From: Escherichia coli
Lineage (GTDB): Bacteria > Pseudomonadota > Gammaproteobacteria > Enterobacterales > Enterobacteriaceae
DNA: 64,000 nt
Assembly: GCF_024502345.1 (NCBI RefSeq)
Contig: NZ_JALDNN010000001.1
Reading direction: 5' to 3' (one strand)
The position numbers were made by a program, and so were the translations under genes. Position 1 is the stretch's first letter. The number at the start of each line of letters is the position of its first letter. Shown one piece after another: positions 8,538-55,345 of this stretch. The notes beneath the pieces are model-generated. The model was not told the DNA's origin, ran no database searches, and was given only the letters and a program-made list of their open reading frames with translations.

Positions 8538-9581
8538 TTATCCACGTAGTGTAGCCGCAAAATCCAGCATACGATTGAGCGGCACCAGCGCCCTCTCTCG
8601 CAGCCTTTCATCAACATGAACCTCGTGATTGCTTCCTTCCTGTTCTAATGCCTCTGCGATGGCCTGAAGGCCATTCATGGCCATCCACGGACAATGCGCG
8701 CAGCTGCGGCAGGTTGCACCCTCACCCGCGGTTGGTGCTTCCAGTAACTCTTTATCTGGCACCGCCTGCTGCATTTTGTAGAAAATACCCCGATCGGTTG
8801 CCACAATAAGCCTCTGATGTGGCAATGTTTTCGCAGCAGCGATCAGTTGACTGGTGGAACCGACCGCATCCGCCATATCGACAATAGCTTGTGGTGATTC
8901 TGGATGCACCAGTATGGCAGCATCCGGGTATTCTTCTTGCAAGCGGGTTAACGCCTGAGTCTTAAATTCATCATGCACAATGCAGGCACCCTGCCAGCAT
9001 AAAATGTCTGCGCCCGTCTGTTTTTGCACGTAACGCCCCAGATGTTTGTCGGGTGCCCAGATGATTTTTTCACCCAAACTATCCAGATGATCAATAAGTT
9101 CGACGGCAATGCTTGAAGTTACCACCCAATCTGCCCGCGCTTTTACCGCAGCAGAAGTGTTGGCGTAGACGACGACAGTATGATCGGGATGGGCATCGCA
9201 AAATGCGTTAAATTCTTCAACAGGGCAGCCGAGATCCAGTGAACATTCAGCCTGAAGTGTCGGCATCAGAATTGTTTTTTCCGGACTGAGAATTTTGGCG
9301 GTTTCTCCCATAAATCTCACCCCAGCGACTAACAACGTAGAGGCGGGATGCTTTGCACCGAAGCGCGCCATTTCCAAAGAATCAGAAATGCAGCCACCGG
9401 TTTCTTCTGCCAGTTGTTGAATTTCGGGATCGGTATAGTAGTGGGCAACCATCACCGCATTACGTTCTTTTAGCAGACGTTTTATCTTCTCGCGGTAATA
9501 CGCTTTTTCATCAATGCTTAACGGCGTCGGCTTCGGGGGGAAAGGATAAATCGCCGTGTCTGGATCAAACATCACGCTCAT
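8538..9581 (-). CDS. nadA: Quinolinate synthase
   Basis: 347 aa; NadA family sequence. Confidence 0.93.
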
Positions 9582-9824
9582 CTTACCATCTCGTTTTACA
9601 GGCTTAACGTTAAAACCGACATTAGCGTGATATTCGCTGTTATCGGTGTGATTTGTTTTATATGCTAAACAAGATAGTCGAATGGTGGGGAAAAGTCACT
9701 CGAATTACGTATGAGATGCCGAATGCCACACTTTGCGTCTTATTCCTCCGACGTAAAGTTGTTTACGCAGCAAGCGCGGAGTATGTCATCAGGGTCAAGA
9801 ATTGAAATTGAGAGATGCCTGAAT

Positions 9825-9860
9825 AGCAAAAAAGCGCCTTTAGGGCGCTTTTTTACATTG
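9825..9860 (-). terminator. Distal copy of the lysT-operon terminator
   Basis: Hairpin aaaaaagcgccctaaaggcgctttttt (minus-strand sense); second copy of a ~55 bp direct repeat. Confidence 0.6.
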
Positions 9861-9978
9861 GTGGGTCGTGCAGGATGACTCGCTTCGCTCGCCCTTCGGG
9901 CCGTCGCCGCGAGCGGCTCCGTTGTTTCGCTGCGCTCAACTCAAACCTGCTGCAGGTTCGAATCTTTGAGTATCGCAG

Positions 9979-10012
9979 ATAGCAAAAAAGCGCCTTTAGG
10001 GCGCTTTTTTAC
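9979..10012 (-). terminator. Rho-independent terminator immediately after lysQ
   Basis: Same GC hairpin plus T-tract directly 3' of the last tRNA. Confidence 0.75.
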
Positions 10013-10014
10013 AT

Positions 10015-10090
10015 TGGTGGGTCGTGCAGGATTCGAACCTGCGACCAATTGATTAAAAGTCAACTGCTCTACCAACTGAGCTAACGACCC
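10015..10090 (-). tRNA. lysQ: tRNA-Lys (anticodon UUU)
   Basis: 76 nt; reverse complement reads GGGTCGTTAGCTCAGTTGGTAGAGCAGTTGACTTTTAATCAATTGGTCGCAGGTTCGAATCCTGCACGACCCACCA. Confidence 0.95.
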
Positions 10091-10607: not shown

Positions 10608-10742
10608 GATACTACGCTGGATACTACAACTAACTATGTTAGTGGTGGGTCGTGCAGGATGACTCGACTTCGTCTCGCCCTTCGGGCCGTTGCTGATGCA
10701 ACGTTATCCTTCACGTTTTACTACCGCTTCCACCTTAGCGAT

Positions 10743-10818
10743 TGGTGGGTCGTGCAGGATTCGAACCTGCGACCAATTGATTAAAAGTCAACTGCTCTAC
10801 CAACTGAGCTAACGACCC
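10743..10818 (-). tRNA. lysT: tRNA-Lys (UUU)
   Basis: Identical 76 nt tRNA-Lys copy; first gene of the operon. Confidence 0.95.
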
Positions 10819-10982: not shown

Positions 10983-11774
10983 TTACATCGCGTTCAGACG
11001 TTTTTGTGCCTGTTTAGCGCCATCAGTACCAGGGTATTTACTGATAACCTGCTGGTATACGGCTTTCGCTTTTGCGGTGTCACCTTTGTCCTGCATGATG
11101 ACGCCGACTTTAAACATCGCATCTGCAGCCTTTGGTGACTTCGGATAGTTTTTCACTACCGAAGCAAAATAGTACGCCGCATCATCTTTTTTACCCTTGT
11201 TGTAGTTTAACTGACCCAGCCAATAATTGGCGTTTGGCAGGTAAGTTGAATCAGGGTAATTTTTGATGAAATTCTGAAATGCCACCATTGCGTCATCCTG
11301 GCGGGATTTATCCTGCACCAGCGCAATAGCTGCATTGTAATCCGTGTTTGCATCACCGCTTTTCACCGGCGCGCCAGCATTCGCAGTACCAGCATCAGCT
11401 GTCGGCGTCGTTGATGCCGCCGCACCGCTTTGATCGACGCTGGTTGATTGCGCCGCTGCACCACCGCTGCTGAGGCTATCGATCTGCAACAGGATCTGCT
11501 TTTGCCGCTCCACGACCTGATTCAGTTGATACTGATTTTCCTGAATCTGACCACGCAGGGAATCAATATCGGATTGATTATCAGAGAGTTGTTGCTGGAG
11601 TTGGGTTAAAAGCTGGCTGTGAGCATTAGAAATACGCTCAAGTTGAGTGACGCGGTCTTCGACCGAGCCTGAGCCGACACTACTGATTGGTGCCTGAGCA
11701 AAAGCGGCCCAGGGGGCCGCTATACCAACCAGTAACGACAGACTCAATAGTTGATGTCTGAAGTTACTGCTCAT
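10983..11774 (-). CDS. cpoB: Cell division coordinator CpoB (TPR protein, Tol-Pal associated)
   Basis: 263 aa; signal peptide, coiled-coil region, TPR repeats; downstream of pal. Confidence 0.9.
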   Translation of the reverse strand: MSSNFRHQLLSLSLLVGIAAPWAAFAQAPISSVGSGSVEDRVTQLERISNAHSQLLTQLQQQLSDNQSDIDSLRGQIQENQYQLNQVVERQKQILLQIDSLSSGGAAAQSTSVDQSGAAASTTPTADAGTANAGAPVKSGDANTDYNAAIALVQDKSRQDDAMVAFQNFIKNYPDSTYLPNANYWLGQLNYNKGKKDDAAYYFASVVKNYPKSPKAADAMFKVGVIMQDKGDTAKAKAVYQQVISKYPGTDGAKQAQKRLNAM

Positions 11775-11783
11775 GCAATTCTC

Positions 11784-12329
<546 letters not shown>

Positions 12330-33329: not shown

Positions 33330-33525
33330 TGTCGGTCACCCGTAGGCCTGATAAGACGTGTAAGCGTCGCATCTGGCATCGCTTGTCGGATGCGGCGCGA
33401 GCGCCTTATCCGACCTACATCGGTGCTTCCCGTAGGCCTGATAAGACGCGTTAAGCGTCGCATCAGGCTTCAATTGCCGGAGAAGGCGATAATGTCTTAT
33501 CCGGTCTACAGTGCAGGTGAAACTT
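33330..33525. repeat. BIME/REP cluster in the sucB-sucC intergenic region
   Basis: Repeated gcctgataagacg...cgcatc palindromic units. Confidence 0.6.
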
Positions 33526-37739: not shown

Positions 37740-37865
37740 GTTACGCCTGATGCGCTGCGCTTATCAGGCCTACGGGTAATGACTTGTAGGCCGGATAAGG
37801 CGTTCACGCCGCATCCGGCACTGGTTGCCTGATGCGACGCTTGCGCGTCTTATCAGGCCTACGGT
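37740..37865. repeat. REP elements in the sdhB-sucA intergenic region
   Basis: gcctgatgcgctgcgcttatcaggcctac and repeated copies. Confidence 0.6.
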
Positions 37866-55209: not shown

Positions 55210-55345
55210 AGCACCGATGCCTGATGCGACGCTTGACGCGTCTTATCAGGCCTACGCATTTCCTGCAATTTATTGAATTTGCACAAATTTGTAGGCTGGA
55301 TAAGGCGTTCACGCCGCATCCGGCATCTGGGCTCGATTGCCTGAC
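55210..55345. repeat. REP elements between dtpD and phrB
   Basis: gcctgatgcgacgcttgacgcgtcttatcaggcctac and a second copy. Confidence 0.6.

Follow-up and report, generated by a model that had tools for sequence, protein, structure and literature searches.

The window, the whole 64,000-nt stretch of Escherichia coli DNA that was analyzed, carries a seven-tRNA operon whose last gene, lysQ, is followed by a repeated segment and then by the nadA regulatory region (Table 1). A repeat search of the window returned an exact direct repeat of 54 nt, with 100% identity between the copies and 156 nt from start to start; identity over such a length is far beyond chance. On the plus strand the repeat reads ATAGC-AAAAAAGCGCCTTTAGGGCGCTTTTTT-ACAT-TGGTGGGTCGTGCAGGAT. 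On the minus strand, which ARAGORN assigns to the tRNA operon, it consists of ATCCTGCACGACCCACCA, the last 18 nt of tRNA-Lys(UUU), followed by AUGU and by a hairpin with its U-tract. The last 18 nt of lysQ make up the first half of the proximal copy, i.e. the array opens with the genuine end of that gene. A preliminary description, prepared from the sequence alone, had reported a duplicated tRNA-Lys 3′-end and terminator downstream of lysQ, with a unit of ~55 bp, copies ~155 bp apart, and ~19 nt of tRNA. The exact repeat bears this out, the true values of 54, 156, and 18 falling within 1–2 nt of those given.

The DNA between the two copies is an RtT body of 102–107 nt. Its antisense T arm is 100% complementary to all five tRNA-Lys genes and, on folding, forms a hairpin with the adjoining GCAGGUUUGA. 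The conserved core is 95% identical to positions 10674–10693, within a second unit in the lysT-valT spacer, and is common to units behind other tRNAs. The lysQ-distal feature is thus one and approximately one-third tandem copies of a 156-bp RtT repeat unit, which comprises the last 18 nt of tRNA-Lys, an intrinsic terminator, and an RtT body of ~105 nt.

Table 1. Features at the distal end of the lysT operon and in the lysT-valT spacer
Feature	Position	Strand	Basis
Terminator 2, identical to terminator 1, last before the nadA regulatory region	9828..9854	-	Repeat search, fold
Distal 54-nt copy	9823..9876	-	Repeat search, exact match to proximal copy
RtT unit 3′-end, AUCCUGCACGACCCACCA, identical to the final 18 nt of tRNA-Lys with CCA	9859..9876	-	Repeat search, operon comparison
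Long-form RtT body, with 5′ arm, antisense T arm, 5′ half of the T arm (GCAGGUUUGA), and three core hairpins	9877..9983	-	Rfam RF00391
Conserved RtT core GCGACGGCCCGAAGGGCGAG (3′ strand of hairpin 1 and hairpin 2)	9888..9907	-	Repeat and pattern search, alignment
Antisense tRNA-Lys T arm, 13 nt, GAUUCGAACCUGC on the minus strand	9952..9964	-	Inverted-repeat search
Proximal 54-nt copy (tRNA-Lys 3′ 18 nt, AUGU, terminator, GCUAU)	9979..10032	-	Repeat search
Terminator 1, A6-GCGCC-CUAAA-GGCGC-U6, intrinsic, apparently bidirectional	9984..10010	-	Fold, -14.1 kcal/mol, z = -4.3
lysQ, last tRNA-Lys(UUU) of the seven-tRNA operon	10015..10090	-	ARAGORN; Rfam tRNA, 79.2 bits
Second RtT unit (100 nt, short form), which fills the lysT-valT spacer	10643..10742	-	Rfam, repeats, filled/empty comparison

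Tandem terminators between lysQ and nadA

Terminator 1 is identical in sequence to the K-12 lysQ terminator and to the lysV terminator. It shows what is expected of an intrinsic terminator (a GC-rich hairpin, a U-tract, and ends mapped at the K-12 sequence) in its GCGCC/GGCGC stem and U6 tract, and terminator 2, which is identical in sequence, would be expected to act likewise. A consensus terminator scan was silent on both because the A-tract pairs with the U-tract, but folding reveals the hairpin. When the whole 194-nt region was folded, the two identical palindromic terminators paired with each other, which was regarded as an artefact of single-molecule folding.

Northern analysis has shown that the lysT primary transcript of ~1100 nt ends at a Rho-independent terminator after lysQ, that RNase P takes off this terminator, and that the long spacers of the operon are treated as 3′ trailers and degraded by RNase II and PNPase (PMC4176162). 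Because the main transcript ends at terminator 1, the lysQ-distal unit is probably mostly silent; read-through of terminator 1 could give rise to RNA from it. The single obvious local effect of the unit would appear to be that two identical terminators, instead of one, separate nadA from the tRNA operon. Two identical terminators 156 nt apart, immediately upstream of the nadA control region, could act as an insulator that shields the NadR-regulated nadA promoter from read-through of the very strong tRNA operon, with the second terminator as the selected feature; in the distal RtT units of Pro tRNAs and of a Yersinia Arg tRNA, the terminator likewise forms part of the repeat unit. However, nearly half of the strains have one terminator, an identical [terminator][RtT][18 nt][terminator] cassette lies behind lysV in a different downstream context, and an RtT body is superfluous for a bare terminator duplication. 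We therefore consider the insulator explanation distinctly unlikely.

RtT family identity of the lysQ-distal unit

The Rfam model for RtT RNA (RF00391) matched positions 9859–9984 over its full length (model positions 1–130 of 130) at 46.7 bits (E = 6.6e-6 for the whole window), a marginal score that lies just 1.7 bits above the gathering score of 45 bits and compares with 133–137 bits for the copies in the tyrT operon. At the orthologous place in RefSeq E. coli genomes (four loci compared), PGAP has applied the label "RtT sRNA", unlike the curated K-12 MG1655 record, which holds no feature there; in K-12, RF00391 gave five matches in the lysT operon and four at tyrT. On the minus strand, that of the tRNAs, the lysQ-distal unit begins 30 nt past lysQ, the final tRNA gene, and closes with the last 18 nt of tRNA-Lys including CCA (9859–9876). 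By alignment, it contains the core hairpins ACGNNGC-loop-GCNNCG and GCCC-GWA-GGGC and a variable hairpin 3 flanked by GAG...CGAGU; hairpin 1 has GA/AG for UU/AA in this copy, and hairpin 3 is GCGAAGC. The outer stem is degenerate, with 4 of 7 outer model pairs non-canonical and a 5′ arm that reads CUCAAAGAU, compared with CGUGAAGGAU in the short-form Lys units. The lysQ-distal feature is a member of the already known and catalogued RtT family.

The rtT/rttR RNA of the tyrT operon is described as a processed RNA (Bosl and Kersten 1991, PMID 1840671, as cited in PMC3318445; bioRxiv 10.1101/2024.07.17.603846). In that operon, three full units of 178 bp, each closing with a 19-nt tRNA-Tyr 3′-end, are followed by a partial last copy. 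The lysQ-distal array resembles it in its homologous core hairpins, in units that end in the 3′ 18–19 nt of the upstream tRNA with CCA, in a tandem arrangement with a partial last copy on the tRNA strand and distal to the last tRNA, and in the name given by PGAP. Because its host is tRNA-Lys and not the tRNA-Tyr of tyrT, it has a different sequence in the terminal 18 nt and in the pieces that derive from the T arm. The lysQ-distal repeat unit also holds an intrinsic terminator between the tRNA and the RtT body, whereas the tyrT RNA starts 7 nt after tyrV. The lysQ-distal outer stem is largely lost. Literature searches for RtT-like repeats turned up no further work.

A 28-amino acid ORF at 9853–9939(-) with a TTG start (MSAAKQRSRSRRRPEGRAKRVILHDPPM) was rejected as a small protein. 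Its start is non-ATG, and its likeness to Tpr, annotated as "protamine-like" in tyrT (MRSFDQGSTRAPARERCRRQRPEGRSAQR), is confined to the RPEGR stretch, which is translated from the conserved RNA core; the ORF was taken to be a by-product of that core.

Filled and empty positions in the lysT operon

At 10643–10666, in the lysT-valT spacer, the tRNA-Lys 3′-end occurs a third time, again flanked by the same 6 bases. This copy belongs to the short-form RtT unit, which ends in the same 18 nt (10643–10660), is matched by RF00391 at 10643–10811 with 60.2 bits, and folds so that the 5′ arm CGUGAAGGAU pairs with AUCCUGCACG. Neither this unit with its third 3′-end copy nor the 13-nt inverted T arm at 9952–9964 had been noticed in the preliminary description. 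The lysT-valT unit is missing in strains A16 and O157:H7, where the spacer consists of the remaining 35 nt. In Citrobacter, the same position holds a close counterpart of the unit.

Nine operon sequences, that of the window and those of eight E. coli strains, were compared. At each of the five tRNA-Lys positions, the gene is followed either directly by its native spacer or by a unit of 98–156 nt and then by the same spacer. The unit boundaries coincide exactly with the copy of the tRNA 3′-end, the optional units ending in ATCCTGCACGACCCACCA, with one base off in a few of the lysY-lysZ units. The number of tRNAs in the operon also varies, with six in O157:H7. Of 5426 complete E. coli genomes, 3047 contained the full-length lysQ-distal body at ≥99% identity and 44% were without it; the empty alleles, e.g. 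that of E. coli B, appear as places of 352 bp.

Judging from the boundaries alone, RtT units may be gained, lost, and homogenised via homologous recombination or replication slippage between direct repeats, of which 18 nt inside the operon, 54 nt behind lysQ, and the identical tRNA-Lys genes themselves would be available. No site-specific recombinase would be needed. Optional segments of this kind have a parallel in the intervening sequences of enterobacterial 23S rRNA, which lie inside a helix of the mature RNA and are excised by RNase III. Both are structured inserts of ~100–150 nt in stable-RNA operons that vary between strains and between operon copies, both may be removed from the transcript by RNases of the host, and neither is known to confer a benefit. 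RtT units, by contrast, follow the mature RNA and repeat its 3′-end.

Tyrosine integrases of the T-loop type leave behind a directly repeated tRNA segment that reaches from the T loop to CCA. The lysQ-distal arrangement resembles their att sites (P4-like, T loop to 3′-end) in that a direct repeat of a tRNA 3′ part flanks an optional segment, with filled and empty alleles and exact boundaries. The preliminary description had proposed a scar of integrase-mediated insertion and excision. In such a case the 3′-end copies would be attL and attR of a phage or island in lysQ that has since lost nearly all of its DNA. However, the neighbors are tRNA genes and nadA, and no integrase, integrase remnant, or cargo was found next to or between the two repeat copies. 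The 54-nt repeat runs 36 nt past the tRNA and spans the host terminator, the same layout occurs between tRNA genes and behind 5S rRNA, and the chromosomal body has homologues in the RtT units of Tyr, Arg, Pro, and Ser tRNAs and of 5S rRNA. Position-specific units also recur at the same operon positions in all E. coli strains compared. With the 126-nt unit as query, 50,697 phage records yielded no real attP-like counterpart, only three weak partial matches, and the matches in a plasmid search were almost exclusively mis-filed chromosomes. An integrase scar is, on this evidence, extremely improbable.

RtT units across the Gammaproteobacteria

The body of 102–107 nt is conserved across Enterobacterales chromosomes. 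Synteny of lysT and nadA with RtT units was observed in Citrobacter, Pluralibacter, Enterobacter, and Phytobacter, whereas nadA lies ~2.4 kb further on in Erwinia, Pantoea, and Mixta. Three tandem 156-bp units are present in Pantoea and a Klebsiella sp. Comparison with other Enterobacteriaceae lysT operons, as suggested in the preliminary description, found the unit to be widespread but not universal. Universal conservation together with a role as a processed spacer RNA, the outcome that the preliminary description had set against its own interpretation, is nearly what was found: the prototype rtT/rttR is processed, and the cassette of terminator, RtT, and 3′-end is present in several genera.

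Genomes were then scanned with a core pattern derived from the Lys and Tyr copies, which biases the host counts, as does the fact that they refer to the matches listed. Among the matches listed, the hosts include at least Lys, Tyr, Arg-ACG, Arg-CCG, Pro-UGG, Pro-CGG, and Ser-UGA tRNAs, and 5S rRNA is also a host of the core. An exact 18/18 copy of the host 3′-end within 70 nt accompanies 81 of the 100 core matches listed with an upstream tRNA on the same strand, with a 16–17/18 copy in 7 more. Where the tRNA differs between taxa, as in the Arg tRNAs of Hafnia and Yersinia and in Tyr variants, the 3′-end follows the host. The layout of the family is an antisense arm, a conserved three-hairpin core, and a usually exact copy of the 3′-end of the upstream RNA. 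In the Alteromonadales, the core is also found in hairpin-mosaic repeats away from tRNAs.

A degenerate tRNA-like sequence, read as a possible decayed eighth tRNA, had also been described behind lysQ. In this explanation, a tandem duplicate of tRNA-Lys and its terminator would have arisen and the distal tRNA degenerated. Pieces derived from a tRNA are indeed present (only the 18 nt, the T-arm half, and the inverted T arm): the unit retains the 3′ 18 nt and a 10-nt 5′ half of the T arm (GCAGGTTTGA versus GCAGGTTCGA), and removal of the core (GTTGAGCG...GCGAGTC) joins these into a T arm that is intact bar one base. In Citrobacter, Kosakonia, and Phytobacter, a nearly complete 5′ part of tRNA-Tyr is fused at GGTTCGA to an RtT core, and the varying tRNA number of the operon points in the same direction. 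There is, however, no cloverleaf. ARAGORN, one of the programs named in the preliminary description, found no tRNA in 9821–10014, and the Rfam tRNA model was blank there even at E ≤ 10. Compared by eye, the 5′ 38 nt of the body and the 5′ 58 nt of tRNA-Lys share no convincing similarity; the homologues of the body are instead RtT units behind other tRNA types, including Tyr, Arg, and Pro. The fusion in Citrobacter may just as well have arisen secondarily, by deletion between the tyrT T loop and a T-loop-like segment of an RtT that was already there. A decayed tRNA is unlikely and holds at most in a historical sense; it fails as a present-day description because the unit belongs to a multi-host family with its own conserved core.

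Pair counts for the family were made on a hand-specified structure, since RNAalifold, faced with misaligned indels in hairpins 1 and 3 of the family alignment, recovered no more than 7 invariant pairs. The 5′ arm was paired with the host-type 3′-end in 81.9% of cells, compared with 37–56% in slid controls. Compensatory change was seen in 7 of 10 of these pairs, and both-side changes in 4 of 5 pairs of core hairpin 3, which lies outside the search pattern; both counts come from sequences related by descent with few independent host switches (~5–7). For Lys, Tyr, and Arg, the cognate duplex was the most stable one by duplex energy. Host specificity, evident from duplex energies and pair counts, did not show in the longest exact antisense words because single mismatches split the arm. 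The covariation in the 5′ arm and hairpin 3 argues that some RtT members at least are under selection for structure, and the family, taken together, is thus probably more than junk.

A transcribed unit would probably be cut out by the nucleases that mature its host tRNA, because the same 3′ sequence stands at the end of the unit, and the released product would be a hairpin RNA like rtT of tyrT. The 3′ETS-leuZ segment of the glyW-cysT-leuZ transcript is a tRNA-operon spacer RNA that acts as an sRNA sponge. The lysQ-distal unit resembles it as a non-tRNA segment of a tRNA-operon transcript that tRNA-processing nucleases may release. Unlike 3′ETS-leuZ, it lies beyond a terminator and belongs to a multi-copy repeat family, not a unique spacer. 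The lysQ-distal unit could itself be a functional RNA, a read-through product with a stable hairpin and a tRNA-identical tail that acts in trans. Processing of the prototype from the tyrT transcript, the family-wide covariation in the outer stem and hairpin 3, and the tracking of the host tRNA by the 3′-end would all agree with this. However, the lysQ-distal copy, with its degenerate outer stem, lies behind the strong terminator that ends the main transcript and is absent from 44% of E. coli genomes, and each of the five operon positions is dispensable in some strain. A functional RNA at this place is rather unlikely, as are the roles that might be given to it, e.g. modulation of the stringent response, which has been proposed for rtT, or that of a decoy for enzymes or factors that read the 3′-ends of uncharged tRNA. 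Given its position behind terminator 1, its degenerate outer stem, and its absence from 44% of strains, the lysQ-distal unit is most likely a largely silent, dispensable copy.

The presence of the core between antisense and sense copies of the host 3′-end at seven or more tRNA species and at 5S rRNA would also be expected of a mobile element that reaches new stable-RNA genes and copies the 3′-end of its target, once direct and once inverted. Filled and empty alleles and the hairpin-mosaic repeats of the Alteromonadales are in keeping with such an element, but no associated enzyme was identified, and slow adaptation of the arm under selection for pairing gives the same picture. Units at the same position have diverged among themselves; they look vertically inherited and give no evident sign of recent mobility. 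A target-copying element, whether by fold-back, template switching, or an RNA-templated process, is very unlikely.

An RtT unit subject to recombinational gain and loss, present here as a mostly silent copy, is in our judgment a highly probable explanation of the lysQ-distal feature as a whole. The locus itself is of little consequence, being a catalogued repeat that lies behind the operon terminator and is dispensable in ~44% of E. coli genomes. It does bear on annotation, in which neither att site nor pseudo-tRNA is a proper label for the duplicated tRNA end. More tentatively, RtT may be a general gammaproteobacterial cassette of stable-RNA 3′-ends, in which either a hairpin with a host-identical tail is selected or an undescribed target-copying mechanism makes the cassette. 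If so, the core would stand between antisense and sense copies of the last ~13–25 nt of its host at seven or more tRNA species and 5S rRNA, and the match between host, sense, and antisense sequences would survive changes of the host sequence between taxa. Were the hairpin the object of selection, it might act, by decoy or competition, on enzymes and factors whose targets are the 3′-ends of tRNA and 5S rRNA. The natural filled and empty alleles at five positions of one operon offer ready, isogenic-like comparisons, and the host-matched sense and antisense arms, including those at 5S rRNA, make the 35-year-old question of the purpose of rtT-like RNA directly testable.

The duplicated tRNA-Lys end and the RtT unit distal to lysQ

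A repeat search confirmed that the end of tRNA-Lys and its terminator are duplicated beyond lysQ, as an exact 54-nt direct repeat with its copies 156 nt apart. On the transcribed strand, each copy consists of the last 18 nt of tRNA-Lys (AUCCUGCACGACCCACCA), AUGU, an A6-GCGCC-CUAAA-GGCGC-U6 hairpin (fold −14.1 kcal/mol, z = −4.3), and GCUAU. The proximal copy starts within the genuine lysQ gene, and at the distal copy neither ARAGORN nor the Rfam tRNA model (E ≤ 10) found a tRNA. A consensus terminator scan reported neither hairpin, since in both the A-tract is base-paired to the U-tract. That it overlooked the lysQ terminator, whose use is known from experiment, advises care with automated terminator prediction.

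When all Rfam families were scanned, the segment between the copies matched RF00391 (RtT RNA) along the full length of the model (E = 6.6e-6 over the whole window). An ncRNA described as "RtT sRNA, processed from tyrT transcript" is placed by PGAP at the exact orthologous position in RefSeq E. coli genomes; the curated record of MG1655 is without a feature there. The element belongs to a known family and has an existing PGAP annotation at this site. The Rfam model matches K-12 five times in the lysT operon and four times at tyrT, the locus that carries the rttR and tpr annotations. The bodies of the tyrT and lysQ-distal units are clearly homologous, sharing in order GAGCG..GCGAG, ACG..GC-loop-GC..CG, GCCCGAAGGGC, a small hairpin, and GAGU, whereas their ends depend on the tRNA (AAUCCUUCCCCCACCACCA from tRNA-Tyr versus AUCCUGCACGACCCACCA from tRNA-Lys).

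Features of the window, with model scores where available
Feature	Position	Strand	Score or remark
nadA upstream region	9700-9815		two haplotypes
54-nt repeat, distal copy	9823-9876
Terminator 2	9828-9854	-
28-aa ORF	9853-9939	-	TTG start
RtT match, lysQ-distal	9859-9984	-	46.7 bits, gathering score 45
54-nt repeat, proximal copy	9979-10032
Terminator 1	9984-10010	-
Third tRNA-Lys 3'-end copy with six flanking bases	10643-10666
RtT unit, short form, lysT-valT	10643-10742	-	Rfam, 60.2 bits
CpoB/ybgF thermometer	11745-11883	-	Rfam gathering-level, 140 bits
naRNA4/CssrE element	33345-33415	-	Rfam gathering-level
naRNA4/CssrE element	37789-37859	+	Rfam gathering-level
ES036/CssrF	55248-55290	-	Rfam gathering-level

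Long-form units, including the lysQ-distal one, carry an extra antisense T arm followed by the 5' half of a sense T arm, and without the core their GGUUYGA and AUCC would rejoin as a T arm. The suggestion in the preliminary description that the distal copy is a decayed tRNA holds something real as to origin, because the unit carries tRNA-derived pieces, and fails as a description of the present element. Integrase-mediated insertion and excision, of which a duplicated tRNA 3' end would be the typical scar, was rejected: the repeat runs through the host terminator, there is neither integrase nor cargo, phage and plasmid searches returned no phage counterpart of the unit, and the same layout is found in spacers between tRNA genes and after 5S rRNA.

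An arginine-rich 28-aa ORF overlaps the RtT core and has RPEGR in common with Tpr of tyrT, annotated as "protamine-like" (loci compared: window 9853-9939 and L009 1088-1177, both minus strand). This likeness is no more than the translation of the conserved RNA core in one and the same frame, and makes it doubtful that tpr is a real gene.

Optional units in the lysT operon

The operon was dissected in the window and in eight E. coli strains. Five tRNA-Lys genes are followed either directly by their native spacer or by a unit of 98-100 nt and then the same spacer; the unit after lysQ is 156 nt long and includes the terminator. The optional units end in the 18-nt copy of the tRNA-Lys 3' end, with a few lysY-lysZ units one base off. 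Two of the five positions are occupied in the window (lysT and lysQ only) and all five in K-12, combinations being strain-dependent. The second unit of the window, 100 nt long, fills the lysT-valT spacer and ends in the identical 18-nt copy; the repeat search found this third copy with the same six flanking bases and the same core. In its predicted fold, CGUGAAGGAU pairs with AUCCUGCACG and GGUGG with CCACC. This unit is transcribed within the lysT 3' trailer. The spacer is reduced to the remaining 35 nt in O157:H7 and in A16, where the lysT unit is missing.

The lysQ-distal unit is missing from E. coli B, O157:H7, and PEC178, and the number of tRNAs also varies (six in O157:H7). Of 5426 complete E. 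coli genomes, 3047 carry the body of this unit in full length, nearly always at 99% identity or more, leaving 44% without it; the empty allele appears as 352-bp matches, ~40% among the evenly sampled matches listed. A cassette of terminator, RtT, 18 nt, and terminator, ~94% identical to the lysQ-distal one, follows lysV at the end of the valU-valX-valY-lysV operon (L075, 9877-10110), with a repeat 14 nt longer (GCTATCTGCGATAT), and ~2180 of the 5426 genomes had a match at neither locus.

The 5' parts of the units differ between operon positions, each position retaining its own version among the E. coli strains compared, and Citrobacter has a unit closely similar to the lysT-valT one at the corresponding position; the units are therefore old paralogues rather than recent insertions. 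On the simplest reading of the unit boundaries, units would be lost and alleles exchanged through recombination or slippage, with the direct repeats and the identical tRNA-Lys genes as partners.

The ~110 nt from terminator 2 to the conserved nadA promoter-proximal region, compared with two other E. coli operons (L003, L004), exist as two strongly diverged haplotypes, one of window/A16/B/O157 type and one of K-12/S51 type. The latter has 28 bp extra, bordered by TTAGGCGTAA repeats and enclosing GCATCCTGCAC, which resembles the tRNA-Lys 3' motif.

Host-matched arms across the family

A scan with the core pattern GCRACGRCCCGWAGGGYGAR, using one genome per species, returned at least 120 loci. Synteny of the lysT operon and nadA, together with RtT units, was also seen in Citrobacter, Pluralibacter, Enterobacter, Phytobacter, and Pseudescherichia, and ~2.4 kb separate nadA from the tRNA-Lys end in Erwinia, Pantoea, and Mixta. 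Three tandem 156-bp units of terminator plus RtT stand behind a tRNA-Lys in one Pantoea and one Klebsiella species.

Among the matches listed, a same-strand tRNA lies within 500 nt upstream in 100 of 152 core matches, and within 70 nt after the core, 81 of these 100 have an exact 18/18 copy of the host tRNA 3' end (16-17/18 in 7 more). Hosts among these matches are Lys-UUU (41), Tyr-GUA (31), Arg-ACG (14), Pro-UGG (6), Arg-CCG (4), Ser-UGA (2), and Pro-CGG (1), from Enterobacterales, Orbales (Gilliamella), Oceanospirillales-type genera, and Thioalkalivibrio. The Rfam RtT model scored the Pro, Yersinia Arg-ACG, Arg-CCG, Ser, and Pantoea Lys copies above threshold and the short-form Arg and 5S-linked copies below it. 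There is a low to moderate probability that RtT is a mobile element that copies its target.

The 5' arm of the unit is antisense to the 3' strand of the host T-stem plus the first acceptor bases, reading CGUGAAGGAU for Lys, GGGGAAGGAU for Tyr, CAGGGAGGAU for Arg, AGAGGAU for Pro, and GGGAAGAU for the Hafnia Arg whose tRNA has CUUCC; for Lys, Tyr, and Arg, the most stable duplex is the cognate one. With the alignment anchored on the conserved GAU motif and not on complementarity, pairing was found in 81.9% of cells, versus 37-56% with the partner slid, and both sides had changed in 7 of 10 pairs. In core hairpin 3, which lies outside the search pattern, both sides had changed in 4 of 5 pairs. 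As comparisons among sequences related by descent, with few independent host switches, these values show complementarity kept across the family, whatever the reason.

Variant arrangements were also seen. At Citrobacter, Kosakonia, and Phytobacter tyrT loci (L021 ~9140-9440, minus strand; L023, L071, L101), a near-complete 5' part of tRNA-Tyr is fused at GGTTCGA to the RtT core as the first gene behind the tyrT promoter; its 3' end is decayed and ARAGORN called no tRNA there. The fusion has two readings: the core lies in the T loop of a tRNA gene, or a deletion joined a tRNA to a unit that was already present. In Pseudocitrobacter and Siccibacter (L086 297-443, L039 205-342), the core follows a 5S rRNA of confirmed identity, between rrf and tRNA-Thr or tRNA-Asp, preceded by GGCAGTTC, antisense to the 5S 3' end, and followed by a 13-19-nt copy of that end. 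An Alcanivoracaceae MAG (L026 7324-7720) has the mirror image, a duplicated tRNA 5' end: it has two tandem 156-nt core-bearing units, and both start with the first 22 nt of the tRNA-Ser(GGA) that lies downstream. In the Alteromonadales (L015 Alishewanella, L098 Arsukibacterium, L051 Aliiglaciecola), core hairpins are set among other GC-rich hairpins in mosaics. The 500 nt upstream hold no tRNA, save for an unrelated tRNA-Glu at a distance of 432 nt in L051. This suggests that the core may be part of a broader group of hairpin repeats.

Transcription and likely role of the lysQ-distal unit

According to Agrawal, Mohanty and Kushner (PMC4176162), the K-12 lysT promoter yields one ~1100-nt transcript, which carries all seven tRNAs and stops at the Rho-independent terminator that follows lysQ. 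They report that lysV has the identical terminator, that RNase P is presumed to remove it, as shown for valU, and that RNase II and PNPase remove the 133-150-nt spacers, which are 3' trailers. K-12 is identical to the window along the whole unit after lysQ, so the RtT body lies beyond the main transcript end. Because of this position, a degenerate outer stem, and its absence from many strains, the unit is most likely a largely silent, dispensable member of a tandem array. PMC3318445 and bioRxiv 10.1101/2024.07.17.603846 describe the prototype rtT RNA as a processing product of the tyrT transcript and as a possible modulator of the stringent response; a trans-acting RNA at the lysQ-distal position is given low to moderate probability, as is an insulator. 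For the silent, dispensable unit, the one obvious local consequence would be a second terminator before nadA.

The lysQ-distal unit is of little interest for this locus itself; the host-matched sense and antisense arms, the use of 5S rRNA as a host, and the five optional positions in one operon merit specialist attention.
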